Virus record (IMG/VR): IMGVR_UViG_2724679293_000031
Coordinates: 1 to 18,911 of that record
DNA length: 18,911 bases
Strand: one strand, 5' to 3'
From: a virus
Lineage: Duplodnaviria; Heunggongvirae; Uroviricota; Caudoviricetes
The notes below the pieces were generated by a model that worked only from the letters and a program-made list of their open reading frames with translations, did not search any database and was not told the DNA's origin. Of this stretch, positions 1-15,683 are shown one piece after another. The position numbers and the translations under genes are program-made. How positions within the stretch are numbered: the stretch's first letter is position 1; each line of letters opens with the position of its first letter.

Positions 1-573
1 ATGTTTTGCGAAGAAAAAGTAGCTCAAATGGCTGCATACCTACTTCTTAAGAGAGGTGGGCGCATGGCATATCTGAAATTGATGAAGCTGCTCTATCTGT
101 CTAACCGCCAGTCGATTTTGAAGCATGGCAGGATGATCGGCGAAGATAGCCTTTACTCTATGAAATTTGGACCAGTCATGTCGAATACGCTGAACTTGAT
201 TCGCGGTAAGGCTGAAGGCATTGGTGACTACTGGTACAACTTGATAGAGACGAACGGGCATAATGTATCGTTGCGTTCAGATCCGAGGGAAATGGATGCA
301 GACGAGGTCTTTGATGAATTGAGTCGTGCAGATATCCGGATTTTAGATGAAATCTATTCTCGGTATGGGCATATGAACCGATTTGATCTCGCAAATATGA
401 CGCATTTAGAAAGCGTTTGTCCAGAGTGGCACGATCCTGGCAATTCTCGTAAGCCTATAGACCTGAAAGAAATGCTGATCAGTGAGGGTAAAAGCGAGGA
501 TGAGGCTAATCGCATAATTGGCAAAATGGAAGAATCTCAGAAACTTAAGGAATTTTCTTTGCAATTATCATGA
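1..573 (+). CDS. Panacea-domain (DUF4065, SocA/GepA-like) antitoxin-like protein; may be 5'-partial at window edge
   Basis: 190-aa ORF with the motif pattern KLxKLLY...FGPV typical of DUF4065/GepA phage-associated proteins (recalled, not searched). Stop overlaps the next ORF's start (ATGA at 570-573). Confidence 0.55.
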   Translation: MFCEEKVAQMAAYLLLKRGGRMAYLKLMKLLYLSNRQSILKHGRMIGEDSLYSMKFGPVMSNTLNLIRGKAEGIGDYWYNLIETNGHNVSLRSDPREMDADEVFDELSRADIRILDEIYSRYGHMNRFDLANMTHLESVCPEWHDPGNSRKPIDLKEMLISEGKSEDEANRIIGKMEESQKLKEFSLQLS

Positions 574-989
574 CGGATTATCAGCCATACAGGAAAGGAA
601 CTGTGCTTGCCCCAACTGGACCATGCAATCATCTTCATGTGATTTGTAATGATCCTGTTTATTACCCCGTTAACGATTGTTATTGTGTTTTAGTTGTTAA
701 TATTTCTAGTATCAAGGATGGTGTCCCCCACGATCCGTCTTGCGTCTTGAATTCTGGTGATCATCGCTTTATCAAGCATCCAAGTTATGTTGTTTACGCT
801 GAAGCTATAATTTGGCGAGTGGATAACATGGTTAGAAAGCAGCGATCGGGTGAGATTTCTGTTCATGATGATATGCCAGAAGCTACATTCAATAGAATTC
901 TGGACGGTTTTGATATCTCTGATGAAGTTACGCCAAAGAACCTTAAATTTAAAAATAAATATTGCGTATCATCTATTGATGATGAGTAA
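570..989 (+). CDS. hypothetical protein, candidate toxin partner of the upstream Panacea-domain gene
   Basis: 139-aa ORF translationally coupled to the upstream gene by a 4-bp overlap; no own SD at normal spacing. Product has no motif I recognise; composition is protein-like. Confidence 0.4.
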   Translation: MTDYQPYRKGTVLAPTGPCNHLHVICNDPVYYPVNDCYCVLVVNISSIKDGVPHDPSCVLNSGDHRFIKHPSYVVYAEAIIWRVDNMVRKQRSGEISVHDDMPEATFNRILDGFDISDEVTPKNLKFKNKYCVSSIDDE

Positions 990-1028
990 ACAACAGGAAT
1001 TGTTTCGGTATAACTTCTGGAGTTTTCT

Positions 1029-1202
1029 ATGGAAGATCAAAAAGCAACCAAGCCACAGGTTAAGTTCGACACAATGAAAGCATTCGTAGGTATGGGTGCT
1101 GCTGTTGAAGTTCTGATGAAGGCTGCTCCTAATGCGTTCACTCACGCTACTGTCTCTGGTAAAGAGCAGCAGGGTAAGCTTCGTCGTCTCAAAGCAGCAT
1201 GA
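1029..1202 (+). CDS. small hypothetical protein (57 aa)
   Basis: ATG at 1029 preceded by GGAG (1019-1022); TGA at 1200-1202 is followed immediately by an intrinsic terminator. Below the ORF-track size cutoff. Confidence 0.4.
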   Translation: MEDQKATKPQVKFDTMKAFVGMGAAVEVLMKAAPNAFTHATVSGKEQQGKLRRLKAA

Positions 1203-1221
1203 TCATAGCTGGTGCTTTTTG

Positions 1222-1250
1222 AAAACCCGCCTTCAGGCGGGTTTTTTCTT
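1222..1250. terminator. bidirectional rho-independent terminator between convergent genes
   Basis: AACCCGCC-TTCA-GGCGGGTT hairpin followed by TTTTCTT on the plus strand; reverse complement also gives hairpin plus a short T run. Sits between the plus gene ending 1202 and the minus gene ending 1250. Confidence 0.6.
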
Positions 1251-1531
1251 TAGTGATTTTCTTTGCCCTTCTGTTTGACTGTTCTGACCTGTTCCCACTC
1301 GATACGTCCTTCTTCTCGCCTTTTGTCTATGTATTCCGCAAGATCCTGAATATTGATGCAACGTTTTGCTTTTTGTGATGTGCCGATGCGATATGTTGGA
1401 ACGGGCAACTTACAAGCGTTTGCTTTTGCTTCTGCCGTGGCTGGACTCATACCAAAGTACTTTTGGCTAACTGCTGAGAGTTCAATGTTTGGGGTATTGA
1501 ATTCAGCCATCAGTAAAAACAAGGTGTTCAT
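1250..1531 (-). CDS. PrtN-family (pyocin-activator/excisionase-like) DNA-binding protein
   Basis: Start chosen at the internal ATG (1531) with GGAG 7 nt upstream. N-terminus MNTLFLLMAEF... resembles PrtN-family proteins (recalled). Confidence 0.55.
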   Translation of the reverse strand: MNTLFLLMAEFNTPNIELSAVSQKYFGMSPATAEAKANACKLPVPTYRIGTSQKAKRCINIQDLAEYIDKRREEGRIEWEQVRTVKQKGKENH

Positions 1532-1567
1532 AATTTTCTCCATCAAAACCGGCTGCACCCGGGAAAA

Positions 1568-2140
1568 TCATAATTCTGTGCTGGTGGCAGGAATTAATTT
1601 CTGCCAGATAGCGGAAACATATTTTGCCTGATGACGGGCATCAGCCAGGGCGTTGTGCCGTTCGCCATCGAAAGGCATGTCCATTTTGGGGTCGAATCCG
1701 ATGGAACGCCCAAGCGTAACGATCGTGCGTACATCGTGGTCATTCCAGTATGCCCACGGGCAGATTTGTCCTGCTCGCTCATAAGCTCCACGTAAAATTA
1801 CGTTGTCGAAGGTGGCTCCGTTACCCCAGACTTTTAAATATTTCGTATTGTCTGCGTGCCGGTTAATGAAATGATTTAGTTCTGAGAGAGCATCGCTGAT
1901 CGACAAAGTATCATCAATACAGATTGCAGCTCGTGCTTCAGGGCTTTGTTTCAACCACCACAGGATGGTATCGCCGTCAGGTGTAGCTCCTTGCTCCATA
2001 GCACTTTCCAGGCTAACAACCGTATAGAATTCTTGTCCGATGTCTCCGATTTCTGGAGTGAAGAACACCGCGCCAATGGAAACGATCGGTGCATCCTTAT
2101 TTTTCCCCATCGTCTCAAGGTCGATCATTAAGTTGTTCAT
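1568..2140 (-). CDS. DEDDh-type 3'-5' exonuclease (phage early gene)
   Basis: MIDLETMG matches the DnaQ-like Exo I motif (DxE). GGAGG SD upstream of the ATG at 2140; stop/start overlap with the upstream gene. Confidence 0.7.
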   Translation of the reverse strand: MNNLMIDLETMGKNKDAPIVSIGAVFFTPEIGDIGQEFYTVVSLESAMEQGATPDGDTILWWLKQSPEARAAICIDDTLSISDALSELNHFINRHADNTKYLKVWGNGATFDNVILRGAYERAGQICPWAYWNDHDVRTIVTLGRSIGFDPKMDMPFDGERHNALADARHQAKYVSAIWQKLIPATSTEL

Positions 2141-2706
2141 CACTTCACCTCCAGCGGCGGTTCCGGTAGCGGCATCCAGTGAGTTGCTTGCTCAATACCA
2201 TTACCCGGCTTAATCGTTGCATCTCCGCGCCGAAAGGTGCTTCCGGTATAGCGTGCGGAGCATATTAGCGGTTCAACCTGAGAGCTATCGAAATTCACCG
2301 AAATAAGCACGTTCTGGCCCTTTTCAGGCATTCGATCACTACAGCTTATCCAACTATCCGGAGTTCCCGGAGAGTTGCCATTTACATCGAAGTTTGGCTC
2401 TGCGTCCTGAACTAGGAGGATGTAACCATTTTTGGCTGTATCAAGTTCTAACGCCTCGGTGACGGTACCGAAATAGCGATTACCTAAATCAACATCACAA
2501 GTGCTTACATCAATGGAAACTTCCATGCCTTCGATTAATTCTGGCAAGTTGTAAGTTTGGCTTACAGGCTCTGCTTCCAGCGATACCAGTGCAATTCGTG
2601 CCAGTTCTTCCGCTTCTTCTGCTGGCAGTACAACGTTGCTGCCAGGTCCGTATGTTTCGCGCCACTGCTGGATTGTCAGCAGTCGCCCTTTGGTAATAGT
2701 GATCAT
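2140..2706 (-). CDS. DUF551 domain phage protein
   Basis: C-terminal ...THWMPLPEPP is the characteristic DUF551 ending (recalled). AAGGAA SD upstream; ATGA overlaps at both ends. Confidence 0.65.
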   Translation of the reverse strand: MITITKGRLLTIQQWRETYGPGSNVVLPAEEAEELARIALVSLEAEPVSQTYNLPELIEGMEVSIDVSTCDVDLGNRYFGTVTEALELDTAKNGYILLVQDAEPNFDVNGNSPGTPDSWISCSDRMPEKGQNVLISVNFDSSQVEPLICSARYTGSTFRRGDATIKPGNGIEQATHWMPLPEPPLEVK

Positions 2707-3218
2707 GCCGCGTTTCCTTCTTTCTTATTAACAATCACACCGTCATATATTTCATTAAGGTGCCCTCTCAACTCCATGCGCCTTAATGCAGATAACATGT
2801 AATCGCATTCAACCTGCTTATTCCCAGTAAATGGCTTATCGTCAGGATTACCCCAACAGCAATTACCCCTGGGCCATCCATGTACTTTCCGTACTCTTCC
2901 GTTAACAACGTGAAGTAATCCCCAGCCGGGAGGTAAATCCTCAACTGAAATAATTTCCGGCTCACTAATAAAGAATCGCCAGTCGCCCATGCCAAGTGAG
3001 GGATTTTTACGGAAACGCTTTTTTCTATCTGCCAACAAGTCAGCACGAGAACACTTCGCCTCTATCAGGCATGATGCTGAATTTCTGAATCCCATAGCAT
3101 CTGGCTGTTCTCCGGTACTGGTTACAGCAACAAAGCGGTCATGAAAGCAAACCTTGAACCCGTTGCGCTTAAGGAACTTGTACGCAATCTGACAGAGTTC
3201 GTGGTGTGTTAACGCCAT
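2703..3218 (-). CDS. hypothetical protein with PD-(D/E)XK-like nuclease motif
   Basis: Start at internal ATG 3218 with AAGGAGAG SD. Sequence ...GEQPDAMGF(x8)LIEAKC... fits a PD...ExK catalytic signature; family not identified. Confidence 0.5.
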   Translation of the reverse strand: MALTHHELCQIAYKFLKRNGFKVCFHDRFVAVTSTGEQPDAMGFRNSASCLIEAKCSRADLLADRKKRFRKNPSLGMGDWRFFISEPEIISVEDLPPGWGLLHVVNGRVRKVHGWPRGNCCWGNPDDKPFTGNKQVECDYMLSALRRMELRGHLNEIYDGVIVNKKEGNAA

Positions 3219-3219
3219 A

Positions 3220-3768
3220 TCACTCTCCTTTGATGCGAATGCCTGTTGCAATGCTGTTTATGATGCTGTCAGTGCATGGGGTAGAAAGCTGGGCATCTCC
3301 AGCAATTTTCATGACCTCAACATCTGCATATCGAATACCGAGGTGTATCAGACCGGCTATGCCTGACTTAAGCCGAGCATTTTCCATAAATAGAACTTTT
3401 GCCCGCTGTTTTTCTGCTTCAAGCTCAACGCGCAGCTTCCCTACCGTTAGCGCAATATCCTCGTTCTCCTGATCGCGGCTTTTGATGTATTGCAGGTTTC
3501 TTTCCTGTTCATCCAGCAGTGCCAGCACGGTAGCCGGGTTAGCCTCTGCTATGAATTCAGCGTTTGCATAAGCCTGAGCATCTGATTCAATCAGGCAGTT
3601 AACATGACATTCCGCAATCACGCCACCGGGTTCTCCTTTCCATTTTTGGCAAACAAAAACTCCTGTTAAATTGCCGTGCTGGTTAACAGATGTATGCCCT
3701 ACGATGTAGCTTCCTTTAGTTGCTTTCTCTGCCTTTTCACGCAGTGCCTGATAGTTAATTTGGGTCAC
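3220..3768 (-). CDS. phage early protein, Ead/Ea22-like (tentative)
   Basis: 182-aa ORF tightly packed in the early-left operon with a coiled-coil-like middle. Family assignment is from memory and uncertain. Confidence 0.45.
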   Translation of the reverse strand: MTQINYQALREKAEKATKGSYIVGHTSVNQHGNLTGVFVCQKWKGEPGGVIAECHVNCLIESDAQAYANAEFIAEANPATVLALLDEQERNLQYIKSRDQENEDIALTVGKLRVELEAEKQRAKVLFMENARLKSGIAGLIHLGIRYADVEVMKIAGDAQLSTPCTDSIINSIATGIRIKGE

Positions 3769-3974
3769 TCTTCATCCTCCAAGTCGGCAACGGCGTCCAT
3801 CACATCAGAACCGCGAATAACCTCAAAAGCACGGCAGGCCATTTGAAATACCAGTTGCTCTTGCGGATGCGGTGATTCCCAATATTTGAATCCAGGGCGA
3901 TGCGCGTACCCCATCATTGAATAAAAATCACCAGCAAGCTTAATCGCGGCATCAACAAGCTCTCTGTTAGTCAT
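3765..3974 (-). CDS. small hypothetical phage protein (69 aa)
   Basis: Start taken at internal ATG 3974, 11 nt after the upstream gene's stop (3986); the track's longer form from 4022 would overlap that gene by 37 nt. Stop overlaps the next gene's start. Confidence 0.4.
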   Translation of the reverse strand: MTNRELVDAAIKLAGDFYSMMGYAHRPGFKYWESPHPQEQLVFQMACRAFEVIRGSDVMDAVADLEDEE

Positions 3975-3985
3975 TCTTTTTCCGC

Positions 3986-4597
3986 TCACTGGTTGCCTCC
4001 TTTGCGAATCTGTTCCGCCCATTCTTCTAGGGATTTCTCCGCATATTCACCGGACAGGCCATCAATCGGGTGTGGTTCATTAGCCAACTCTTCTTTCGCT
4101 GACAGAATCATGCGTGTAACGTCGAAAACTTCACGTAAAGACTTATTGATAAATCCGTGATTGAAAGCAGCAGCAAGACGGCTTGCGGTATAGTTAATCC
4201 CCTCGTTGCGTGCTTCCGCACGAATTTCAGCCAGGAAAGCATCGGTGGCTGGAGTTTCGCTGTGGTGTAGGGCATCGTTGATAATCATTGCAGCAACACC
4301 AGCCTGCCCTGCATCCGTGACCGACACATGCTCAAGAGTTACGGCCATTGCGTGTTTCAGCCCCGCATTCTCCGCCGCCAGCGCCGAAAACTTCTCGTGT
4401 GCCAACTTAACAGCTGCATCAGCCTGCTTAATTGACTCAATCGCTTTCTGTTGGTCTTCGGACAGAGCCAAAATCTTGGCCTCCGCTTCAGCAAATTTAC
4501 GCACCAGATATTCAGCATTTGTTTCATTCACTTTCAGATCTCGTGGTACACATTTCCCGCGAAGAAACCCTTCCATTTCGAAAACATTCATGCGCAT
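3986..4597 (-). CDS. hypothetical phage protein, predicted coiled coil
   Basis: 203-aa ORF with GGAG 8 nt upstream; Ala/Glu/Lys-rich heptad-like N-terminal half. No family recognised. Confidence 0.5.
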   Translation of the reverse strand: MRMNVFEMEGFLRGKCVPRDLKVNETNAEYLVRKFAEAEAKILALSEDQQKAIESIKQADAAVKLAHEKFSALAAENAGLKHAMAVTLEHVSVTDAGQAGVAAMIINDALHHSETPATDAFLAEIRAEARNEGINYTASRLAAAFNHGFINKSLREVFDVTRMILSAKEELANEPHPIDGLSGEYAEKSLEEWAEQIRKGGNQ

Positions 4598-5124
4598 GTG
4601 CGTAACTCCGATAACTCGTTAAAGCGCTCCATAAACATCCCGTAGGCATGGCTCGGAGCCAGTGGAATAACTTTGAACATTTCTGTTGCCGGGATACCTT
4701 CCAGTACTGGCCAGAAAGAGCCATCATCAAGCCCGAGATCGCGGCGTTCGGTTGCCAGCATGATGAGATCGGCATATTTCACAGGCGTGCTCATAACCGG
4801 GGGTAACCCGTATTTCTCACGGATTACGGCGTCTATTTTTTCTTCCATCCGTTTATAGTCAGGAAGAAGGCGTTTCAGTGGAGCGGGAATATCCTGGCAA
4901 TACGCTTCTGTTGCATCATGCATTAACGCTTCAAAAGCAAATTCCTGCGGCACCAGCTGGCTGCAAAGAACCGCATGTTGGGCGACGCTGTAGAAGTGCG
5001 AAAGATGACCGGCAAAGCGACAGATATTTGAAAGGGAAACCGCGATATCGTTAATATCGATGTCGTCTTTATTTATCCTGTCATAATAAAAATGCTTCCC
5101 AGAAAAAGTTTTGATAAATGACAT
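4588..5124 (-). CDS. HD-domain phosphohydrolase (YfbR/YfdR-like 5'-deoxynucleotidase family)
   Basis: H...HD motif (HFYSVAQHAV ... LMHDATEAY). Start at internal ATG 5124 with GGAG SD, giving 178 aa. Confidence 0.7.
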   Translation of the reverse strand: MSFIKTFSGKHFYYDRINKDDIDINDIAVSLSNICRFAGHLSHFYSVAQHAVLCSQLVPQEFAFEALMHDATEAYCQDIPAPLKRLLPDYKRMEEKIDAVIREKYGLPPVMSTPVKYADLIMLATERRDLGLDDGSFWPVLEGIPATEMFKVIPLAPSHAYGMFMERFNELSELRTCA

Positions 5125-5251
5125 TTTGTTCTCCACGTATATGCGCTGCACCGCGCTGAATTCTGGTAAAAAGAATCCCTCACCATCCGGCGATTATTGA
5201 GTAAATTACGTTTCCATAAATGCCCCCGCAGGGGCATTTGCAGTAATGAAA

Positions 5252-5911
5252 TCAGGCGGTGAAAGTACCAATAAAGGTTTCTACTTTGCTGTCCTTGAAT
5301 TTCTCAACAAGCAGATCACGAAATTCGTTAGCCATTTCTTCCTGCACCGCCTCCAGCTGAATAATGCGCAGAACCAGTACAGGACGATCGCCAGTGATAA
5401 TGCTGAGGCGTAATTTAAACGGACGTTCTTTCAGACCTTCAAACGGAACGCATTTAAATTCAAATGCCACTGGCATAATATCTTTGGTCTTCGCTTCGAC
5501 AGACTCCATCAGGGAGCGTTTGCCGCTGAAGTCATTATCTTCAAAATCAGCGGTCTGGTTTGCTTCAATCGTGATTTTACGGACCGCCGCAGCCGCTTTT
5601 GTTGCCTGAATAGCGTCACCATTAGCATCAAAGCCCACAAGGTAGTCGGCCCAGTCTTCAATCCATTCTGCCAGTGACTTCTGGGAGTTACGCTCGCCGT
5701 TAACAGACAACAGGGCAGAGAACGGTGCTGTCTTTTTCAGTTTGAGAGTGGCGGTGTTATCTGCGTGACCTGGTTCATCAATAGTACCCAGGTTAAGCAC
5801 ACTGACTGCTCGCATATTATCGGCATCGATAAAGCAGCGGGTGCCTTCATCTGCAAGATCTTTAGAATAACGGGTAAAGTCATCGATGCTGGCAGTGGAA
5901 AGCGCACCACG
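5252..5911 (-). CDS. DUF2303 (YfdQ-like) phage protein, 5' end lost in assembly gap
   Basis: The frame stays open for 32 codons upstream of the track's ATG (5815) right up to the N-run, so the true N-terminus lies in the gap. Family assignment by recalled similarity and synteny with CPS-53-like yfdP-yfdQ-yfdR. Confidence 0.5.
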
Positions 5912-5917
5912 NNNNNN
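5912..5917. other. assembly gap (N-run) of unknown true length
   Basis: Six N characters; the flanking minus-strand ORF is open into the gap. Confidence 0.9.
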
Positions 5918-5951
5918 GATGAGATAAATAATCAGTTAATTAAGAACGATA

Positions 5952-6314
5952 TTAATGACCTTCTGCGCGGAGTTTTCCGTCAGGTTCACCGGCAAGAGTC
6001 AGTAATTGTCCCTGGTCTTCCTGCAGAATAGTCAGGCGACCACCGCGATTGACATACATCGGCGTTTCGGTGGTGTCTTCTTCAGAAATTTTCCCGCGGT
6101 TAGTCGGGCGAACATATGAGAGTTTGTGTTTGATTTTCACACGGTTCTCATCAAACGGTTCGATTTCCAGGTTGAGCGAGACCTTACCTTTGGTTTTCGT
6201 GTTCATCACACCGGAAGCGACTTCACTGAGAACTGCGCCGATTTTGGTTTCAAATACGCCGCCGTCCAGCTCCCCGATAAATGCCTGCACATCAGTACTG
6301 CGTTCGCTAGCCAT
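5952..6314 (-). CDS. hypothetical phage early protein (121 aa; YfdP-like by position)
   Basis: Start at ATG 6314 with GAGGAG SD 7 nt upstream. The track's longer N-terminal extension (to 6500) reads through a structured leader and is not protein-like. Confidence 0.55.
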   Translation of the reverse strand: MASERSTDVQAFIGELDGGVFETKIGAVLSEVASGVMNTKTKGKVSLNLEIEPFDENRVKIKHKLSYVRPTNRGKISEEDTTETPMYVNRGGRLTILQEDQGQLLTLAGEPDGKLRAEGH

Positions 6315-6362
6315 TTTGCTACTCCTCATCATATCGACCCTGCAAGGTCGGTTGGTTTCTCC

Positions 6363-6461
6363 ACAAAACAGAGAAGAACACCTGCGGTGGCAGCCGCCCG
6401 GATGGATTGGGTTATGAGCCCGTCGTCCGGTGATGCTCTTCTCTGTTTTGTAAAAAGAGCG
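6363..6461 (-). promoter_or_regulatory. boxA-like element plus extended stem-loop in the early-left leader (candidate nut/put-like antitermination site)
   Basis: Minus strand reads CGCTCTTTTTACAA (similar to boxA, CGCTCTTTA/TGCTCTTTAACAA), followed by a perfect 15-bp inverted repeat (6363-6377 / 6437-6451) enclosing about 58 nt that contains further short stems. Confidence 0.3.
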
Positions 6462-6928
6462 GTACCAGCCGTAAGCAAGTGTACAAACTGGTACCGCCAA
6501 AGCAGTGGCTGCTGTGGTGACCGGTGCTGATCTCCGGCTTGCGGTTATTTCAGACTCTCACGGGCGTTTAATTGCCCCGCCGAACAGCTCTTTTCCGCAA
6601 TAGCTGCAATGTCTTTCGCGCATCAGCCTGCGCATTCACCACAACGCTGAGAGCACTTAGCCAGTTACGGCACCACACTTTGTCGCGGTTCCATAAATGC
6701 CCTCATCGTTGCACCCTGGTCTCTTCCCAGGCGTCAAACCGAATCGCCACGCTGGTTAGGCGTCTTATCAGCGTCATCATTGACTTGCACATTCCGGCTA
6801 CCTGGTTTGTTTGCTCGAGCAAGGAGTGGATTGTCCCCTTTAACGTCACCAGACCGCTAACGACGCATGTGCCATACGCCGTGTTACAACCAAATTTTGT
6901 TAGTACCTTGTTTGTATGTCTGGAAAGA

Positions 6929-6957
6929 AAGATAAAATGAAGTTGCGCATTATGCAA
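6929..6957 (-). promoter_or_regulatory. candidate early-left promoter (pL-like) overlapping operator sites
   Basis: Minus strand TTGCAT (6957-6952), 17-nt spacer, TATCTT (6934-6929). The -35 lies inside a TTGCG-N5-TGCAA operator-like site. Confidence 0.3.
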
Positions 6958-6992
6958 GTGTTTTTATTGCGAGATATGCAATTTGGTGGGTG

Positions 6993-7016
6993 ATGAAAAG
7001 CCACCTTCTGGTGGCT
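6993..7016 (-). terminator. intrinsic terminator downstream of the cI-like gene
   Basis: Minus strand AGCCACC-AGAA-GGTGGCT hairpin followed by TTTTC, about 20 nt after the cI stop. Confidence 0.4.
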
Positions 7017-7036
7017 AATTGATGTTGAGGTAGGGG

Positions 7037-7729
7037 TTAATTGTGTCGCTTAAGGGTTTGTGACTGACTGATTAAGACCTTTCCAAAGACCATAAACCGA
7101 TGTTCGTTTTCGCTGGTAATTCCCCATTCGCGGTAAATCTGATTATCAGAAATTACCAGCAGTTTATCAGGTATCATTTGCAGTCGTTTGACGTAAATTT
7201 TATCATCAAAACCAAATGCATATATACCATCCCCATCAAACTGATTGATACTGATATCAACGAAGATGAGATCTCCTGGCTCAATGGTTGGACACATACT
7301 GTCCCCACGAACGTTGATAACTTTAATGTGATTTGCTGGTCGTCCACCAAACATCGATACAGCATTATCAGTTCTGTATTCAATGGCATGAATCACATCA
7401 ATGACATCACCGCCCTGGATAAGGCCATTTCCCGCACTGGCACTGACATCCAGCATTTCAATACGGAATACATCCTTCACCTGCGCAACATCCTCACTAA
7501 TACTGTTTTTACATACAGTATTACTTTTGAGGTCTGAGGTAAAGAGATCAGCAATATCAACACCTAAGCTCCTGGCAATATTACTCAGGGCTTGTTCAGT
7601 GAATTGTTTCTGCTTACCTGTTTCGAGGCGCGAGATATTCGCCGCATCCACTCCTATTGCTTCAGCGAGATCGGCGATTTTCATGTTCTTCGCCTGGCGA
7701 AGTTGTCTGACTCGATTTCCTATGTTCAT
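7037..7729 (-). CDS. cI-like prophage repressor (XRE-type HTH plus S24/LexA-like autopeptidase domain)
   Basis: N-terminal HTH (…IADLAEAIGVDAANISRLETGK…); C-terminal GDSM motif (VRGDSMCPTIEPGD) and downstream KRL lysine typical of S24 self-cleaving repressors. Divergent from a cro-like gene. Confidence 0.85.
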   Translation of the reverse strand: MNIGNRVRQLRQAKNMKIADLAEAIGVDAANISRLETGKQKQFTEQALSNIARSLGVDIADLFTSDLKSNTVCKNSISEDVAQVKDVFRIEMLDVSASAGNGLIQGGDVIDVIHAIEYRTDNAVSMFGGRPANHIKVINVRGDSMCPTIEPGDLIFVDISINQFDGDGIYAFGFDDKIYVKRLQMIPDKLLVISDNQIYREWGITSENEHRFMVFGKVLISQSQTLKRHN

Positions 7730-7826
7730 GCGTTTATTACATTTCTTTATTGCGCGTTAAGCAAATCAACTTGCGCAAAATATTTGCGTGAAATAATATG
7801 CTCATCACGCAATATGTGGAGGTTAT
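7730..7826. promoter_or_regulatory. immunity switch region: OR operator-like sites with candidate pR and pRM
   Basis: Plus strand TTGCGC (7772-7777), 17 nt, TAATAT (7795-7800) as pR for cro. Minus strand TTGCTT, 17 nt, TGTAAT (7742-7737) 7 nt from the cI ATG, giving a near-leaderless cI mRNA. Operator-like TTGCGCGTTAAGCAA (7751-7765) and CGCAAAATATTTGCG (7775-7789). Confidence 0.4.
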
Positions 7827-8087
7827 ATGCAATCACCATTACGGAATGTGCGTAAGGCGCACGGATTTACTTTGCAGCATGTTGCTGCGGGCGTTCAGGT
7901 CAATCCAGCGACGCTGAGTCGTATTGAAAGACAGGAACAAATTCCATTTATCGATCTTGCAGAACGTCTGGCCAATTTTTTTAAGGGTGAAATCAGCGAA
8001 ATGCAGATTCTTTATCCGGCACGTTTTCAATCTAGCCAAAACCAGAATGGGTTTAAACCACAGGAACAGGAGGTAAGCCGTGGGTAA
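7827..8087 (+). CDS. Cro-like HTH regulator
   Basis: 86-aa ORF, GGAGG SD, HTH segment (…HVAAGVQVNPATLSRIERQE…); divergent from cI. Confidence 0.7.
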   Translation: MQSPLRNVRKAHGFTLQHVAAGVQVNPATLSRIERQEQIPFIDLAERLANFFKGEISEMQILYPARFQSSQNQNGFKPQEQEVSRG

Positions 8088-8631
8088 GCATCACTGGAAA
8101 GTGGAAAAACAACCTGAGTGGTACGTGAAAGCTGTCAGAAAAACTATCGCGGCGTTGCCGGGAGGTTACGCTGAAGCTGCTGAGTGGCTGGATGTAACAG
8201 AGAACGCTTTATTCAACCGCCTTCGTGCAGATGGCGATCAGATTTTCCCGCTGGGATGGGCAATGATTTTACAGCGCGCGGCTGGCACTCACTACATTGC
8301 GGATGCTGTCGCACAGTCTGCTGGTGGGGTGTTTGTATCGCTTCCTGAAATTGAGGAAGTAGAGAACGCCGATATAAACCAGCGCCTGCTGGAAGCCATC
8401 GAACAGATCGGGAGTTACTCAAAGCAGATTCGTTCGGCAATCGAAGATGGGGTAGTGGAGCCACACGAGCAGACAGCAATTAATGATGAGTTGTATCTGT
8501 CAATTTCGAAGCTCCAGGAGCATGCAGCACTGGTCTACAAAATCTTTTGCGCTCCAGAAAAGAGTGACGCCCGCGAGTGTGCAGCTCCGGGCGTCGTGGC
8601 GTTTTGTGTCTGTGGAGAAACTAACGCATGA
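8080..8631 (+). CDS. cII-position early regulatory protein (possibly YdaT-like family)
   Basis: GTG start at 8080 with AGGAGG SD 5 nt upstream, overlapping the cro stop. Position immediately after cro. Family assignment tentative. Confidence 0.5.
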   Translation: MGKHHWKVEKQPEWYVKAVRKTIAALPGGYAEAAEWLDVTENALFNRLRADGDQIFPLGWAMILQRAAGTHYIADAVAQSAGGVFVSLPEIEEVENADINQRLLEAIEQIGSYSKQIRSAIEDGVVEPHEQTAINDELYLSISKLQEHAALVYKIFCAPEKSDARECAAPGVVAFCVCGETNA

Positions 8632-8776
8632 ACAGTTTAACGGCAAATAACCGTTTGTCGCAACAGCTGGTGGTCAGCGTCGCTGAACACCTGTTGTTAC
8701 GGCATGAATGCAGATTACCAAATCACCTGGCTGTAAGTAACCACAGAGAACTTTACCTGACTGTGGGGGGCGAGTT

Positions 8777-8956
8777 GTGCAGGAACTTAACCGCTGGTTT
8801 CGTGACGGAAGAGGGCTTTATGTCCATGTTATTCGTTGGGAGCCAGAAACACAGCGCGTTATCTATCTTCGCAAAGACTACCCGCATGAGTGCTTTAGTC
8901 CTTTGTGGAAATTCAGGCGTGATTTTGTTGAGTGTGAAGGACCACCAGCATATTGA
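8777..8956 (+). CDS. small hypothetical protein (59 aa), tentative
   Basis: GTG start preceded by GGGGGG (8765-8770). Product ...ELNRWFRDGRGLYVHVIRWEPETQRVIYLRKDYPHECFSPLWKF... has protein-like composition. Just below the track cutoff and in a different frame from the track's 8628 ORF. Confidence 0.3.
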   Translation: MQELNRWFRDGRGLYVHVIRWEPETQRVIYLRKDYPHECFSPLWKFRRDFVECEGPPAY

Positions 8957-9041
8957 TTCTGCAATTCCGGGACGTTACACTGCTCAGGCACCTTATAAAG
9001 CGGGTGCCGGGATTGGCGTCCTGAAATTCGCACATGCGCAT

Positions 9042-9066
9042 AACCGCGCTTCAGCGGTTTTTTTGC
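9042..9066 (+). terminator. intrinsic terminator upstream of rha
   Basis: AACCGC-GCTTCA-GCGGTT hairpin followed by six more T residues (9060-9065). Confidence 0.45.
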
Positions 9067-9227
9067 GCACGTTTCCTCACATCCAAATTATGGTGGGGCG
9101 TGCAGGGGCATCGAAAGATGCGCCGGGGTCATGTGCGACCGGTTACGCCAACCCTGTACGTCTCACCACCTCTGTGATTGGCGTCCCATGTGGTGAGTTT
9201 TCAAAATTCGCACATGAGGATGTCACT

Positions 9228-9773
9228 ATGGCAACCACCCCTACCCAAACTCACCCTAAAATTGATGTTATCCATGGGAAGGCTGTTACCTCTTCTTTGG
9301 CCGTTGCCGAATATTTCTGCAAGCAGCACAAAAACGTTATTCAAAAAATCCAGACGCTTGAGTGCTCTGTTGAATTCACTGAGCTGAATTTTCAGCCCAG
9401 TGATTACACCGATTGCACAGGCCGCAAACTCCCTTGTTACCAAATCACCCGCGACGGTTTTGCGTTTCTTGCCATGGGCTTCACGGGTAAACGTGCTGCC
9501 CAGTTCAAAGAGGCATACATCAATGCCTTTAACCAGATGGAGAAACAGCTTTCAAATCCCTCTGTACTGAGCGACGTTGCACATAACGCCAGCGTTCTCT
9601 ATTCCTACATTTCATCAATTCATCAGGTCTGGCTGCAGCAGCTTTATCCTATGTTGGCAAAAGCCGAATCTCCGCTGGCTGTTAGCTTGTATGACTATAT
9701 TAATGATGCTTCGGCACTGGCCTGCCTCATAAATTTGTCGCTGAACCCTTCAGAGGTAAGGGGGCGCAAATGA
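9228..9773 (+). CDS. Rha-family phage regulatory protein
   Basis: Start at internal ATG 9228 with GAGGA SD. N-terminal Rha domain signature (…KAVTSSLAVAEYF…NFQPSDYTD…YQITRDGFAFLAMGFTGKRAAQFKEAYINAFNQME). Confidence 0.7.
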   Translation: MATTPTQTHPKIDVIHGKAVTSSLAVAEYFCKQHKNVIQKIQTLECSVEFTELNFQPSDYTDCTGRKLPCYQITRDGFAFLAMGFTGKRAAQFKEAYINAFNQMEKQLSNPSVLSDVAHNASVLYSYISSIHQVWLQQLYPMLAKAESPLAVSLYDYINDASALACLINLSLNPSEVRGRK

Positions 9774-9994
9774 TCCGGAATATTTTCAAACGGTTTACCA
9801 ATCAGACTTTCCGTTGTCCTCGTCCGGGTCAGTGGTACACCACACCTGCAGGGCATGTTCTACGTGTTAGCCTGGTTGACCGTGAATGTCAGAAGGTGAT
9901 TTGTGAACCGCTGGGCCGTAATTACCGCGTCAGTATGCCGCTTATAGCCTTTCGCTCCGGAAAAAACATGAAGCATCTCGGAGGTGCAGCATGA
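9770..9994 (+). CDS. small hypothetical protein (74 aa)
   Basis: ATGA overlaps at both ends (rha stop, O-like start); GAGGTAAGGGGG SD upstream. Confidence 0.5.
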   Translation: MIRNIFKRFTNQTFRCPRPGQWYTTPAGHVLRVSLVDRECQKVICEPLGRNYRVSMPLIAFRSGKNMKHLGGAA

Positions 9995-10830
9995 GTATGG
10001 AGCTGATGGTTAAAGCGATGAAAATTCGAGTGGGTAATCCATTGCGAAAACTGGTTCTGATCAAGCTGGCTGATAATGCCAGCGATCAGGGTGAGTGCTG
10101 GCCCAGCTACCAGCATATTGCTGACCAGTGCGAGATTAGCAAACGTTCTGTGATGAATCATATTGCGGCCCTTTGTGAGTCCGGGCTGGTAAAAAAAGTC
10201 ACCCGGAAAGGTGAAAAAGGTAACTCAAGTAATATCTATCTCCTTCATCTTGATGGTGCAGGAGATTCACTAGGGAGTAGTGCAAATAATTCACTATCTG
10301 GTGCAGCAAATTCACCAGGTAGTGCAGGAGTTGCACTAGGTAGTGCAGGAGTTGCACCAGGGGGTAGTGCAGGAGATTCACCCAGAACCAGTCACTCTTT
10401 TGAACCAGTCAAAGAACCAGTCAATGAACCAATAGCTGTTGGTGCATCTGCTGATGAGTCTGTGCGAGTTCGTTCAAACCGACCGGAATACTCTCCAGAG
10501 TTTGAGCAGGCATGGCTGGCATATCCCAAACGTGCTGGTGGCAATTCAAAATCTGCAGCCTTCAAAGCCTGGAAAGCCCGTTTGAATGAGGGGGTAAACC
10601 CCGAAACCATGCTGGAAGGTGTGAAACGCTACGCGGGCTGGGTATCTGCGATGGGTAACAGCGGCACACAATTTGTGAAACAGGCTGTCACGTTCTTTGG
10701 TCCGGATCGTCATTTCGAAGAATCCTGGGAAGTTCCTGCGGTATCTGTAGCCGGACGTGAGGACCCGTACTTCAAAGCCAGTTACGACAACGTGGACTAC
10801 AGCCAGATCCCGGCAGGATTCAGGGGGTGA
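9991..10830 (+). CDS. O-like replication initiation / replisome-organiser protein with HTH N-terminal domain
   Basis: GGAGG SD. N-terminal HTH typical of phage replication proteins, a Gly/Ser/Ala-rich linker encoded by tandem DNA repeats, and a conserved C-terminal region (…AWKARL…TFFGP…). Confidence 0.6.
   Translation: MSMELMVKAMKIRVGNPLRKLVLIKLADNASDQGECWPSYQHIADQCEISKRSVMNHIAALCESGLVKKVTRKGEKGNSSNIYLLHLDGAGDSLGSSANNSLSGAANSPGSAGVALGSAGVAPGGSAGDSPRTSHSFEPVKEPVNEPIAVGASADESVRVRSNRPEYSPEFEQAWLAYPKRAGGNSKSAAFKAWKARLNEGVNPETMLEGVKRYAGWVSAMGNSGTQFVKQAVTFFGPDRHFEESWEVPAVSVAGREDPYFKASYDNVDYSQIPAGFRG
10255..10433 (+). repeat. iteron-like tandem repeats inside the O-like gene (candidate phage ori)
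   Basis: About six tandem 21-24-bp units with core (A/G)GTGCAGGAG(A/T)T(T/G)CAC (10255-10383), followed by 3.5 copies of GAACCAGTCA (10385-10433). Confidence 0.45.
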
Positions 10831-10832
10831 TC

Positions 10833-11321
10833 ATGAGTCTTTTGAATGACGTTCAGAAATTCATTGAAGCCCATCCGGGGTGTACTTCCGGAGACATTGC
10901 GGATGCTTTTGCAGGTTACTCACGGCAGCGCGTTCTGCGGTCAGCAAGCAAGTTACGTCAGAGCGGGCGTGTGGCTCACCGTTGTGAAGGAGATACACGC
11001 AGACATTTCCCGCGCCTGACTGAGAGAGCGCAGGAACCGGAACCACAACCAGTTCGAGAAACCAGACCTGTGCGCAATTTCTATGTCGGCACTAACGATC
11101 CACGGGTGATTTTGTGCCTGACCCGCCAGGCGGAAGAACTGGAGTCCAGGGGCTTATACCGTCGTGCTGCAACGGTGTGGATGGCGGCATTCCGTGAAAG
11201 CCACTCCCAGCAAGAGCGAAACAATTTTCTGGCGCGTCGTGAGCGGTGCTTACGGAAAAGCAGCAAGCGCGCTGCATCGGGTGAAGAGTGGTATCTGTCA
11301 GGGAATTACGTGGGGGCTTAA
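10833..11321 (+). CDS. PerC-family (Pch-like) transcriptional regulator
   Basis: Start at ATG 10833 with GGGGG SD. ELESRGLYRRAATVW matches the recalled PerC-family signature (E-LE-x-KGLWRRAA-x-RW). Confidence 0.5.
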   Translation: MSLLNDVQKFIEAHPGCTSGDIADAFAGYSRQRVLRSASKLRQSGRVAHRCEGDTRRHFPRLTERAQEPEPQPVRETRPVRNFYVGTNDPRVILCLTRQAEELESRGLYRRAATVWMAAFRESHSQQERNNFLARRERCLRKSSKRAASGEEWYLSGNYVGA

Positions 11322-11646
11322 TGAGTAATAAATATTGCCAGGCGCTGGTGGAACTGCGGAACAAACCAGCCCATGAACTGAAGGAAGTGGGCGATCAGTG
11401 GCGCACGCCGGACAACATTTTCTGGGGAATTAACACCCTGTTTGGCCCGTTTGTTCTGGATCTGTTCACTGACGGTGATAATGCCAAATGTGCCGCGTAT
11501 TACACGGCGGAAGACAACNNNNNAAGACCTGGAAGGGACCGGCAATCAGCTACATCGGGCGCGATGAACTTGAGGCATGTGGTGAGGCCTTTCTGGCGCA
11601 GGTTCGCCAGCAGGCGGAAAAACTGGTCAGGGAGATGGCGGCATGA
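11321..11646 (+). CDS. phage DNA N6-adenine methyltransferase (Dam family), interrupted by an assembly gap
   Basis: N-terminus MSNKYCQALVELRNKPAHELKEVGDQWRTPD...FGPFVLDLFTD... is the recalled phage Dam signature. The N-run at 11519-11523 breaks the frame; a 40-codon C-terminal piece resumes in another frame and ends at TGA 11644-11646. Confidence 0.6.
11519..11523. other. assembly gap (N-run) of unknown true length
   Basis: Five N characters; reading frame before and after is inconsistent with a literal 5-nt gap. Confidence 0.9.
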
Positions 11647-11969
11647 CGACGTTAACTCAATGCCAGCAGCAGGTGCTGGATATGCTGATTTCTTACCAGA
11701 AAGAGCGTGGCTTTCCGCCAACCAATCAGGAGGTGGCAACCATGCTGGGATATCGTTCAGTGAATGCAGCGGTGGAGCATCTTCGCGCACTGGAGAAAAA
11801 AGGCGTCATCACGATAAAGCGTGGTGTGGCCCGGGGGATAACGCTTCATACCGCGGTGAAGGACGACGACAGCGAGGCGGTCGGGATTATCCGCTCACTG
11901 CTTGCCGGTGAGGAAAACGCCAGGCTGCGTGCAGCCCACTGGTTACATGAGAGGGGTCTGAAAGTATGA
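11643..11969 (+). CDS. LexA N-terminal DNA-binding-domain homologue lacking the S24 protease domain
   Basis: 108 aa; LTQCQQQVLDMLISYQKERGFPPTNQEVATMLGYRSVNAAVEHLRALEKKGVITIKRGVARGI aligns by eye with the E. coli LexA N-terminus ([63 protein letters not shown]). No Ser/Lys autocleavage region. Confidence 0.65.
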   Translation: MTTLTQCQQQVLDMLISYQKERGFPPTNQEVATMLGYRSVNAAVEHLRALEKKGVITIKRGVARGITLHTAVKDDDSEAVGIIRSLLAGEENARLRAAHWLHERGLKV

Positions 11970-12355
11970 AGCTGATTCTGCCTTTCCCGCCCAGCGTGAA
12001 CACGTACTGGCGACACCCCAACAAAGGGGCGTTTGCAGGTAAGAGCCTGATAAGCGCGGCGGGGCGCAAATTCCAGAGCGCGGCGTGTGCAGCAATAGTT
12101 GAGCAGTTACGTCGTCTGCCAAAACCAACGTCGGCACCTGCTTCAGTGGAGATCGTGTTGTTTCCTCCGGATAACCGGATCCGCGATCTGGACAACTATA
12201 ACAAGGCGCTGTTTGACGCCCTGACCCACGCGGGTGTGTGGGAAGACGACAGTCAGGTGAAAAGAATGCTGGTGGAGTGGGGACCGGTTATCCCGGAAGG
12301 GAAGGTCGAGATCACTATCAGTAAGTACGAGAAAACGGCGGGTGCAGCCGCCTGA
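11966..12355 (+). CDS. rusA: RusA-family Holliday junction resolvase
   Basis: LPFPPSVNTYWRH... and ...RDLDNYNKALFDALTHAGVWEDDSQV match conserved RusA motifs; ATGA overlap with the upstream gene. Confidence 0.8.
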   Translation: MKLILPFPPSVNTYWRHPNKGAFAGKSLISAAGRKFQSAACAAIVEQLRRLPKPTSAPASVEIVLFPPDNRIRDLDNYNKALFDALTHAGVWEDDSQVKRMLVEWGPVIPEGKVEITISKYEKTAGAAA

Positions 12356-12374
12356 TTAAGAGGAGAAACGAAGT

Positions 12375-13172
12375 ATGAATAATCTGATGGTCATTGATGG
12401 TATTGAAGTTCGTCGTGATGCTTATGGTCGTTACAGCCTGAACGATCTGCACAGGGCTGCCGGTTCTCTGGATAAGCATAAGCCTGCATTCTGGCTCCGC
12501 AATGAGCAAACTGAGCGTTTAATAAGCGAGTTGCAGATTTGCAACTCGGTCAATATAGAGCCAGTTAACGTTATTCGTGGCGGAAATAACCAGGGGACGT
12601 ATGTCTGCAAAGAACTGGTGTATGCCTATGCAATGTGGATCAGCCCGTCATTCCATCTGAAGGTGATCCGTACTTTCGACATGGTAACCAGCGCACCGGA
12701 AAAATTATCCGGACAGGCTGCTGACAAGATGCAGGCTGGTGTGATTCTGCTGGACTTTATGCGCCGGGAGTTAAATCTGTCTAACTCTTCAGTGCTTGGA
12801 GCCTGTCAGAAACTTCAGGAGGCTGTTGGCTTACCGAATCTGGCACCGCGCTATGCCATTGATGCTCCTGCTGATGCGCCTGATGGCTCAAGCCGCCCCA
12901 CGCTGTCGCTGAGTGCACTGCTGAAACAGTATGGTATCCGCCTGACGGCTAATCAGGCATATCACCAGATGGTGAAGCTGGGGATCGTCGAGCAGCGCGA
13001 ACGATACAGTCGTACCGCGATTAACAACATCAAAAAATTCTGGTCGCTGACAGCGAAAGGCTGCATGTTCGGCAAGAACATCACCAGTCCCGCAAATCCG
13101 CGCGAGACGCAGCCGCATTTCTTCGAATCCCGATTCCCTGAGCTGTTAAAGCTGCTCGATACCGTTCATTGA
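12375..13172 (+). CDS. KilA-N domain protein (antirepressor-like)
   Basis: AGGAG SD; N-terminal KilA-N-like segment (IEVRRDAYGRYSLNDLHRAAG…WLRN…QGTYVCKELVYAYAMWISPSFHLKVI). Confidence 0.65.
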   Translation: MNNLMVIDGIEVRRDAYGRYSLNDLHRAAGSLDKHKPAFWLRNEQTERLISELQICNSVNIEPVNVIRGGNNQGTYVCKELVYAYAMWISPSFHLKVIRTFDMVTSAPEKLSGQAADKMQAGVILLDFMRRELNLSNSSVLGACQKLQEAVGLPNLAPRYAIDAPADAPDGSSRPTLSLSALLKQYGIRLTANQAYHQMVKLGIVEQRERYSRTAINNIKKFWSLTAKGCMFGKNITSPANPRETQPHFFESRFPELLKLLDTVH

Positions 13173-13173
13173 G

Positions 13174-14169
13174 GTGACCGTGAGAGCACTACTGACCCCT
13201 GAAATTGCCCCGCGTATGGGGATCGTATTGTTCAGGCCAGGTTCAGAGCTGATGCCCCTGTTTATGCAGGGGCGTGTCCTGCTGGAGCCTGAGCCGGAGC
13301 GTTATTCATCTTTCGCCAGTGGTGCCGTTCCGGCGGCATCACAACCGCTGGCGGATGATCCTGCCGTTCGGGCCGTGTTCCGCAATGAGGCAGTGATCCG
13401 TCGTGCTGGTGGCGTGGAATGTCTTGAAAGCTGGTTACTTCGTGAAAAAGGCTGCCAGTGGCCTCATTCCGACTGGCACAGCGAGAACATGACCACAATG
13501 CGACACGCTCCGGGTGCAATCCGTCTGTGCTGGCACTGCGATAACCAGCTGCGCGATCAGTTCACGGAACGGCTGGAATCAATGGCAACGGATAACTGTG
13601 CCCGCTGGGTGTTGTCTGTTGTGCGTCGGGATCTCGGTTTTGATGACAGTCACGTTGTGACAATGCCGGAACTGTGCTGGTGGCTGATTCGTAATGATCT
13701 GGCGGATGCCTTACCGGAAAGTGCAGCCCGTAAGGCACTGAGATTACCGAAGCCTGTTGTGCCGTCTGTTACCCGGGAAAGTGACCTTGTGCCTTCGGTT
13801 CCTGCCACCAGCATCATCCAGGATAAGGCGAAAAAGGTGCTGGCGCTGAAAGTGGATCCGGAGTCGCCGGAGTCTTTTATGTTACGCCCAAAACGTCGCC
13901 GCTGGGTTAATGAAAAGTACACGCGCTGGGTTAAGACACAGCCGTGTGCATGTTGTGGAAAGCCCGCTGATGATCCCCACCACCTGATAGGTCACGGTCA
14001 GGGTGGAATGGGAACAAAAGCGCATGACCTTTTTGTGTTGCCTTTGTGCAGAAAGCATCACGACGAGCTGCATGCGGATACCGTGGCATTTGAAGAGAAG
14101 TATGGCTCCCAGCTGGAGCTGATATTTCGTTTTATCGATCGTGCGCTGGCAATTGGCGTGCTGGCCTGA
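13174..14169 (+). CDS. DUF968-family phage protein (HNH-like Cys/His C-terminal motif)
   Basis: C-terminal ...[20 protein letters not shown]...[12 protein letters not shown]... resembles the DUF968 signature. GTG start at 13174 is uncertain (alternative ATG at 13216). Confidence 0.55.
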
Positions 14170-14186
14170 TTTTGTGGAGAAAGTTG

Positions 14187-14552
14187 ATGCGTGATATTCA
14201 AATGGTTCTTGAACGTTGGGGGGCATGGGTGGCAAATAATCACGAGGATGTCACCTGGTCGTCTATTGCTGCAGGATTTAAAGGACTAATCCCTTCAAAA
14301 GTAAAATCCCGCCCGCAATGTTGTGACGATGACGCGATGATCATTTGTGGATGCATGGCTCGCCTGAAAAAGAACAACAGCGATTTGCACGATTTATTAG
14401 TGGATTATTATGTAGGTGGTATGACTTTTATGGCGCTTGCCCGTAAACATGGGCGTTCTGATTGCTGGGTTGGGCGTTTATTGCAAAAGGCTGAAGGTGT
14501 AGTTGATGGCATGTTAATGATGTTAGAAATTGAGCTAGAGATGGATCGTTAG
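14187..14552 (+). CDS. late-gene antiterminator Q (phage 82 / QuuD-like family)
   Basis: Start at ATG 14187 with GGAG 7 nt upstream. [34 protein letters not shown]...[16 protein letters not shown]... matches recalled QuuD-type Q proteins. Confidence 0.65.
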
Positions 14553-14594
14553 AAGACCTCTTATTGAGGGGGTAATTGAATCAGTTTAATGTGT

Positions 14595-14630
14595 GGGGAG
14601 TCGATTTATTCTCCCCATTTTATTTAATTT
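14595..14630 (+). terminator. intrinsic terminator downstream of Q
   Basis: GGGGAG-TCGATTTATT-CTCCCC hairpin followed by ATTTTATTTAATTTATTT. Confidence 0.45.
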
Positions 14631-14632
14631 AT

Positions 14633-15079
14633 TTAAGGTTTTAATTCATCAAGACGTTGTTGGATAGTGTTTTTGCTTGCGTTGTCTGTTATAGACATTT
14701 GTTGTACTTGCCCCATTGCCATTTGAGTTTCCATCCACATATCGGCCCACACTTTTGTATCGTTATTAACTTGAGCGATAGTAAATCTGACTTTTGATAC
14801 CGGGGTTGTTGAATAGGCATTGCCGATTAACATTTGTCCAAAAACAGCAGAGCCGCCTTCCAGTTCTTTACCACATATAACACTGCTGTTATCCGCGTTG
14901 TAAATTATCAACCCTCTACTATTGCAGTAATTCACAAGGGCATCTTTGACTTTATCTTTTGTCGTATTTTGATAAACCCCCTCAGGTTTTCCTGATTGAG
15001 TTTTCTTTATCAATGGTACGGAAGAAGTACAACCTGAAATGATAGTTGCGCTAAGTAATAGTACAGTCATTTTATTCAT
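14633..15079 (-). CDS. lipoprotein of unknown function (moron)
   Basis: N-terminal signal peptide with lipobox (…LLLSATIISGC-TSS); AT-rich gene in opposite orientation to the flanking phage genes. Confidence 0.65.
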   Translation of the reverse strand: MNKMTVLLLSATIISGCTSSVPLIKKTQSGKPEGVYQNTTKDKVKDALVNYCNSRGLIIYNADNSSVICGKELEGGSAVFGQMLIGNAYSTTPVSKVRFTIAQVNNDTKVWADMWMETQMAMGQVQQMSITDNASKNTIQQRLDELKP

Positions 15080-15202
15080 GTTTCTTATCCATTGTTAAGG
15101 GCATACCCACACAATTATTTTTATTGGAGATGAATAATCAACCGTTTACAATCGTAAAAAATCAAATATGCTGTTAAGAGTGGTTACTTCGCCACACAAC
15201 TT

Positions 15203-15648: not shown

Positions 15649-15683
15649 TGAGCTAACCAATTGCTAATGAAAGTAAAATTATA

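Follow-up and report, generated by a model that had tools for sequence, protein, structure and literature searches.

The first 989 bases of a stretch of viral DNA 18,911 nucleotides long (IMG/VR record IMGVR_UViG_2724679293_000031, positions 1 to 18,911, from a member of the Caudoviricetes) hold two overlapping genes that we think quite likely to be a type II toxin–antitoxin (TA) pair of the PanA–PanT kind, of the published T6 class. We refer to the whole stretch as the window and to the two genes as panA and panT (together, panAT). Panacea, or DUF4065, is the domain that defines PanA antitoxins, which Kurata et al. 2022 (PNAS, PMC8832971) described together with 88 clusters of partner toxins, the PanTs. 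A preliminary description of this DNA had proposed a candidate TA module at its left end, and the Panacea assignment, the coupling of the two genes and their T6 membership lend that proposal support. The window pair is a new member of a known, validated PanAT family. Domain identity, fold, family membership, conserved pairing, coupling and the boundaries of the cassette that carries the genes make up the observed level of the work. The features at the heart of the account are these, with the proteins named for their putative roles.

1..573, + strand: panA, encoding a 190-aa antitoxin (PF13274 match, conserved GPV motif and confident AlphaFold model)
570..573, + strand: ATGA overlap, made up of the panA stop TGA (571-573) and the panT ATG (570-572), with no separate Shine-Dalgarno sequence
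570..989, + strand: panT, encoding a cluster T6 toxin of 139 aa, predicted to have a MazF/Kid-like SH3-barrel fold

The antitoxin gene

The preliminary description had read a DUF4065/Panacea signature in the open reading frame (ORF) at 1-573 and had suggested a hidden Markov model (HMM) search as a check. The signature is real. Pfam model PF13274 (SocA_Panacea) matches the ORF with 70.9 bits, far above its gathering score of 25.7 (E 2.2e-19, residues 27-137). Three parts make up the protein: the Panacea/DUF4065 core (27-137), a TH..CPEW.DP segment that homologues conserve and, at the C-terminus, a long helix (166-189). The GPV motif of Panacea, reported to be critical for neutralization (PMC8832971), is well kept in an alignment of 37 homologues, where G57 and P58 are invariant and V59 occurs in at least 90%. 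The C-terminal third is also kept across homologues, in the form of a TH..CPEW.DP..S..PI segment and a GK pair. AlphaFold gives a model that is confident along its whole length (predicted local distance difference test, pLDDT, 93.1), with the long helix 166-189 at its end; a Foldseek comparison of this model with the PDB returned nothing similar (best E 2.6).

Because full-length homologues are 185-191 aa long and start with MF(C/S)EEKVAQ, the 190-aa ORF is complete and position 1 of the window is the true start of PanA. In an identical genome, an in-frame stop lies 81 nt upstream of this start. There is neither a helix-turn-helix nor any other added domain in the protein, and PanA is therefore a stand-alone Panacea antitoxin. 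Antitoxins of this stand-alone type neutralize their toxins directly (Ernits et al. 2023, PMC10440598).

Coupling of the two genes and the true start of panT

The preliminary description saw a 4-nt ATGA overlap between ORF 1-573 and ORF 570-989 and no ribosome-binding site for the second, and the sequence agrees on both counts: the 20 bases ahead of ATG 570, gaattttctttgcaattatc, contain no purine-rich Shine-Dalgarno. The Prokaryotic Genome Annotation Pipeline (PGAP)/RefSeq entry (WP_014640052.1, 128 aa) places the toxin start at GTG 603 instead, after the purine-rich AGGAAAGGAA. Those bases code for the conserved YRKGT residues of PanT, and starting at GTG 603 drops 11 residues that homologues keep. 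Among 21 homologues of 47-75% identity, the 11 residues ahead of V12 are conserved, with P6 in at least 90% and G10 invariant. In Pantoea, Chimaeribacter, Shewanella, Proteus and Pseudomonas, every panT homologue opens with an ATG in a 4- or 1-nt overlap with the preceding stop, and overlaps of the same size, -4 or -1, are listed for T6 in the Dataset S1 entries covered (PMC8832971). The GenBank phage record MT225100, too, starts the toxin gene at the ATG overlapping the panA stop. Since the upstream 11 residues are kept and homologues begin with an overlapping ATG, ATG 570 is the real start of panT, better than GTG 603, and translational coupling of panA and panT is a conserved feature.

Place in the published PanAT catalogue

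The covered part of Dataset S1 of the catalogue annotates T6, from HHpred, as "EndoA/PemK/MazF-family RNAses" and names among its members Pantoea septica LMG 5345 (overlap -4), "Yersiniaceae bacterium 2016Iso4" (overlap -1), Proteus vulgaris, Pluralibacter gergoviae, Methyloprofundus and Beggiatoa (PMC8832971). A scan of species-representative genomes with an alignment of ORF 570-989 recovers both P. septica LMG 5345 and 2016-Iso4, to whose toxins the window PanT is 56% and 55% identical, respectively. Both of these toxins directly follow a Panacea gene, with exactly the overlap given in the Dataset S1 entries covered.

The experimental anchor of the cluster is a pair from Pseudomonas moraviensis. 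This T6 PanAT is toxic, is neutralized by its PanA and forms a complex; its PanT specifically inhibits incorporation of 35S-methionine and not DNA or RNA synthesis, and its PanA neutralizes independently of ClpXP and Lon (PMC8832971). The authors lengthened the P. moraviensis PanA by ten residues, MIFSEQKVAQ (PMC8832971). The Pseudomonas PanA P0217 (our locus L031) begins with exactly these residues, and its downstream gene overlaps it by 1 nt, as the covered entries tabulate. Compared with the window, this Pseudomonas pair has 42% identity in PanA (E 3e-33) and 43% in PanT (E 1e-32). Because the LMG 5345, 2016-Iso4 and Pseudomonas pairs all match it, the window's partner gene can, from its sequence, be assigned to a named and experimentally anchored toxin cluster, T6. 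The preliminary description had called the product of ORF 570-989 an unknown partner; that holds for Pfam, NCBIfam and PADLOC, none of which gives a significant match, and fails against the published cluster.

The likeness to T6 extends to its organization. There, as here, a Panacea antitoxin with a GPV motif is encoded first, followed by a toxin of ~130-140 aa with a MazF/PemK-like fold and an overlap of 4 or 1 nt. The gene layout that defines a PanAT locus is present in the window: two genes no more than 100 nt apart (here overlapping by 4 nt), found in at least two species, with no longer operon conserved around them. Unlike the P. moraviensis pair, the window copy is a cassette on lambdoid prophages that integrate at dusA and are partly Shiga toxin (Stx)-converting. 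SocAB of Caulobacter crescentus, a type VI TA system whose SocA is the founding Panacea protein, likewise sets a Panacea antitoxin beside a toxin; SocB, however, blocks DnaN, falls in cluster T10 and is unrelated to PanT of T6. SocA is a ClpXP adaptor. The window PanA fails the NCBIfam SocA equivalog NF047745 (14.4 bits against a cut-off of 190).

Is the E. coli prophage copy itself already in the catalogue? It was not found among the Dataset S1 entries covered, nor were WP_000458584, WP_014640052 and WP_000390073 found in the covered text of the supplement (PMC8832971). We also considered whether the window pair could be one of two non-toxic pairs, those of E. coli MOD1 and Salmonella phage Emek. 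Both identities were rejected, as those pairs are in cluster T1, and a tblastn search of PanT against phages gave no Emek match.

Conservation across genomes and phages

The three proteins encoded at the left end of the window were compared by tblastn with all fetched loci. Wherever the upstream DNA could be read (24 of 24 loci), a PanA homologue lies immediately upstream of PanT on the same strand. These loci span the Enterobacterales, Shewanella, the Methylococcales and Beggiatoa, and both the strict pairing and the start-stop overlap persist down to about 40% identity. Within E. coli, 205 of 5,426 complete genomes carry the whole of the first 1,300 bp.

The pair is found in varied company. 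It lies in the tail-gene region of a Klebsiella phage, and it is the first operon (L032 139-958) of Vibrio phage 10N.239.311.H11_PE001, a 14.5-kb non-tailed temperate phage of the Vinavirales. The Vibrio copy shows that the cassette moves between very different types of phage. At the end of a Proteus prophage, a gene ~700 bp from panAT (L007 1657-2721) matches PADLOC PD-T4-5 (E 1e-30) and AbiD; because this gene adjoins it, the Proteus pair lies in a defense-gene neighborhood.

Fold, family and conserved residues of PanT

The preliminary description had also suggested searching ORF 570-989 with HMMs of toxin families. That search gave no profile match; it was structure that revealed MazF and Kid. 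An alignment-based AlphaFold model of the ORF is confident (pLDDT 89.7; predicted template modeling score, pTM, 0.83), and the top 50 Foldseek hits to it are all MazF or Kid chains, with E values from 5e-3, a probability of about 1.0 and template modeling (TM) scores of 0.5-0.6. In both structure searches made with PanT, MazF and Kid outscore CcdB. The model thus predicts for PanT the SH3-like barrel fold of MazF, Kid and CcdB.

The family is large, with 2,710 clusters at 50% identity reaching E ≤ 0.001 in a representative library. Its conserved residues are H21, S/T47, D55, C58, H65, S/T72, Y76 and G113. Across a diverse set of 63 members, H21, C58 and G113 never vary and positions 47 and 72 are Ser or Thr every time (63/63); D55, H65 and Y76 each occur in 61 or more. 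The window PanT has every one of the family-invariant residues. Position 47 lies within a VN[IV][ST][ST] motif in strand beta-3, which we take to resemble the P-x-T-T motif of MazF that carries its catalytic Thr. The invariant H21 is in beta-2, presumably where MazF has its catalytic Arg, the register here coming from predicted secondary structure without superposition. An RNase in which His replaces Arg is plausible on the model. The D55/C58/H65 cluster, which has no counterpart in MazF, could mean a different chemistry.

Differences from the classical toxins deserve equal space. PanT has no detectable sequence similarity to the RNases MazF, Kid (PemK) and EndoA of PF02452, and where MazF and Kid conserve Arg and Thr, PanT conserves His/Asp/Cys/His together with Ser/Thr. 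As far as we can judge without superposition, the long beta1-beta2 loop of MazF is apparently a tight hairpin in the PanT model, and PanT presumably has 2-3 extra C-terminal helices. The antitoxins differ as well: MazF and Kid are paired with MazE and Kis, which are of AbrB or ribbon-helix-helix type, whereas the upstream antitoxin here is a Panacea protein.

An exchangeable cassette at the end of dusA prophages

The first 1,300 bases of the window recur without a difference in the chromosomes of E. coli O103 strain RM8385 and several other strains, and in the induced Stx1a-converting phage Lys8385Vzw (PMC7946995). In RM8385, they lie in a lambdoid prophage, at its left end; the prophage is inserted at the 5' end of dusA, and a 105-bp dusA remnant ends 254 bp ahead of window position 1. 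The circular phage genome runs from the integrase (- strand) through a gap of ~450 bp to three + strand ORFs, a PrtN-family gene (-) and an exonuclease (-). The gap after the integrase must hold the phage attachment site, attP. The window departs from RM8385 after about 2.5 kb, and no complete E. coli genome has the whole window contiguously (best coverage 80%). The features that bound the pair on its right are as follows.

990..1015, + strand: 3' end of the cassette; homology to panAT-less dusA prophages restarts at 1016-1019
1029..1202, + strand: 57-aa ORF, a phage-backbone gene matching phrog_2741 (E 1e-34)
1221..1246, + strand: intrinsic terminator hairpin, backbone sequence between the convergent 57-aa ORF and PrtN-family gene
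1250-1558, - strand: PrtN-family (excisionase-like) gene

Pairwise blastn of two loci, L001 (with panAT) and L029 (a sister dusA prophage without it), places the breakpoints. Shared DNA ends at L001 7807, which is 193 nt before window position 1, and restarts at L001 9016, which is window position 1016. By megablast, ~360 further E. coli genomes match from 1016 or 1019 onward only, that is, over the 57-aa ORF and the PrtN gene. In sister dusA prophages, the space from the dusA remnant to the 57-aa ORF is taken by a single unrelated gene for a protein of 177 aa, WP_000956557.1 (L028 3281-3814; L029 3284-3817). It has no Pfam or PADLOC match and may be another unrecognized accessory or defense gene. 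Because the breakpoints fall at -193 and 1016 and a different gene occupies the slot in sister prophages, panA, panT and ~190 nt of their own upstream DNA are a 1.2-kb exchangeable cassette beside the left attachment site, attL. The cassette also contains, 127 nt ahead of panA, a weak promoter-like TTGACC-17-TAAACT, the only + strand site of its kind in the region.

The preliminary description had the 57-aa ORF and a terminator closing the unit. This part did not survive: both are phage backbone, found in ~360 genomes that lack panAT. The ORF is present without panAT in L028 and L029, and tblastn of the fetched loci finds it in no panAT locus beyond the E. coli prophage lineage. In CP074756, it is frameshifted or left unannotated after a 1-nt difference in length, and panAT is intact. 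Because the 57-aa ORF is absent from other panAT loci and present in those ~360 panAT-less genomes, the module has two genes and not three. The good Shine-Dalgarno ascribed to the ORF is there, a GGAG 7 nt upstream of its ATG, and the ORF is probably on the same transcript as panAT. The terminator at 1221-1246 had been called bidirectional, which it is only weakly. On the + strand, it is a strong hairpin of 11 pairs followed by a T-run (fold -21.5 kcal/mol, z -3.8). Its minus-strand counterpart folds at -18.1 kcal/mol with a weak UUUUC tail, and the scan called the + strand only. PHROGs returned phrog_1281, phrog_19071 and phrog_2741, all families of unknown function.

The arrangement recalls the 'moron' and defense hot spots at prophage ends, where temperate phages carry variable cargo between att and int/xis. 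Here, too, there is a variable slot for cargo, with a 1.2-kb cassette that brings its own upstream region, and the Proteus pair, also at the end of a prophage, has an AbiD/PD-T4-5-like gene as its neighbor. One difference is that the window pair has no PADLOC v2 match.

A proposed mechanism and its significance

How might the pair work? By analogy with the P. moraviensis T6 member, PanT would most likely stop growth through a block of translation, probably as an RNase. PanA would bind PanT directly and keep it inactive, and the ATGA overlap would couple translation of panT to that of panA, so that the toxin would be made only alongside its antitoxin. Lying in the variable slot that separates attL (in dusA) from the excisionase-side backbone, the cassette could be expressed by the lysogen. 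Its use to the prophage may be to exclude other phages, through abortive infection once the toxin is released, or to stabilize the prophage. The variable prophage-end slot and the AbiD/PD-T4-5-like neighbor in Proteus fit an accessory function expressed from the lysogen. Toxicity, RNase chemistry, direct neutralization and biological role are inferences here.

A bolder version is possible but doubtful in our estimation. In this version, the T6 PanTs would be a new catalytic variant of the MazF/CcdB scaffold, acting through H21/D55/C58/H65 (maybe a metal site), and the pair would be an abortive-infection system in which Panacea senses an incoming phage and sets the toxin free.

What would follow? 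Two genes annotated "Panacea domain-containing protein" and "hypothetical protein" gain a name and a testable function, and the annotated start of the toxin gene is corrected. About 4% of complete E. coli genomes have the pair, and so does an inducible phage that is Stx1-converting; if the pair does exclude phages or stabilize its prophage, it would bear on the persistence and spread of Stx-type prophages. The slot beside attL of dusA prophages emerges as an exchangeable cargo site. On mechanism, little is added beyond the PanAT publications of 2022-2023.

Weighing the alternatives

Several results weigh against reading the pair as a working TA with a MazF-like RNase. Eight of the 25 candidate PanTs tried in E. 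coli were non-toxic (PMC8832971). None of the three ORFs matches a PADLOC v2.0.0 model, even with E as high as 1. The promoter-like site in the cassette is no better than expected from shuffled sequence. The window PanT is unmatched by PF02452 (PemK_toxin) at E up to 1, and only 1 of the 63 PanT family members reaches as far as E 0.11 with that model. HMM profiles A1 and A2 found no match among PDB sequences, and hhalign of the same profiles against EndoA and Kid was negative (with approximate sequences for the two toxins). The link between PanT and MazF would thus be one visible in the comparison of predicted structures and not in sequence. Finally, the invariant H21/D55/C58/H65 are not the catalytic Arg/Thr pair of MazF, and the chemistry may differ.

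Could the pair be a conserved two-gene phage accessory module and not a working TA in E. coli at all, its PanT being non-toxic or acting only on incoming phage or some other target? The non-toxic eight do include the E. coli MOD1 and Salmonella phage Emek pairs (PMC8832971), and the silence of the defense databases suits this view. Yet those two pairs are T1 and the window pair is T6, whose tested representative is a true TA (PMC8832971); the pairing and the start-stop overlap stay strict down to about 40% identity, and the window PanT keeps all its family-invariant residues. We regard such a module as unlikely. Slightly less likely still is a PanT that uses the MazF/CcdB scaffold for something other than RNase activity, either poisoning gyrase in the manner of CcdB or carrying out a metal-dependent reaction at H21/D55/C58/H65. 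Against it, both structure searches rank MazF and Kid above CcdB, the beta-3 motif VN[IV][ST][ST] has Ser or Thr at position 47 in every case, and the tested T6 member blocks protein synthesis specifically and not DNA or RNA synthesis (PMC8832971).

The TA reading we prefer has PanA inhibiting its partner by binding. SocA, the founding Panacea antitoxin, suggests another route, type VI, in which PanA would be a proteolytic adaptor handing the toxin to ClpXP, and the authors of the catalogue note that the two modes of neutralization need not exclude each other (PMC8832971). We consider this very unlikely for the window pair: its PanA scores far below the SocA equivalog cut-off, its PanT is unrelated to SocB of T10, and PanA neutralization in E. 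coli does not need ClpXP or Lon, with the T6 pair forming a stable complex (PMC8832971). The last alternative makes the 57-aa ORF a functional third component of a three-gene operon, whether chaperone, regulator or second antitoxin. The ORF is on the same strand after a gap of 39 nt, has its own Shine-Dalgarno and shares the terminator, and no promoter-like site was found between panT and it. Set against this are its absence from panAT loci outside this E. coli prophage lineage, its presence with the PrtN gene in about 360 genomes without panAT, a recombination breakpoint right at its Shine-Dalgarno, and the missing annotation in CP074756 beside an intact panAT. A three-gene operon is, to our minds, scarcely credible.

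Elsewhere in the window

The remainder of the window holds a few features of separate interest. Two minus-strand ORFs, 2703-3251 (182 aa) and 3986-4597 (203 aa), are intact here; the closest RefSeq relatives have them annotated only as frameshifted or partial pseudogenes. No Pfam model matches either ORF. In the late region, we find antiterminator Q (14172-14552), a gene with an AraC-type helix-turn-helix (15684-16397), a CAT tRNA (16426-16501, annotated as tRNA-Ile in a relative) and a tRNA Arg-TCT (16603-16679). The slot of RM8385 that matches 14172-16679 holds stx1a, and the window has no stx-sized ORF.

Rfam adds three RNAs, all on the + strand. A gathering-level match to isrK (8988-9064, 62 bits) and another to the C4 antisense RNA of P1/P7-type immunity (9086-9173, 75 bits) fall in the region of a Rha-family ORF (8628-9773). 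A strong match of 132 bits identifies the small RNA STnc100 at 17376-17565; the minus-strand ORF next to it, 17591-17926, has the anti-adapter IraM as its counterpart in the closest genome.

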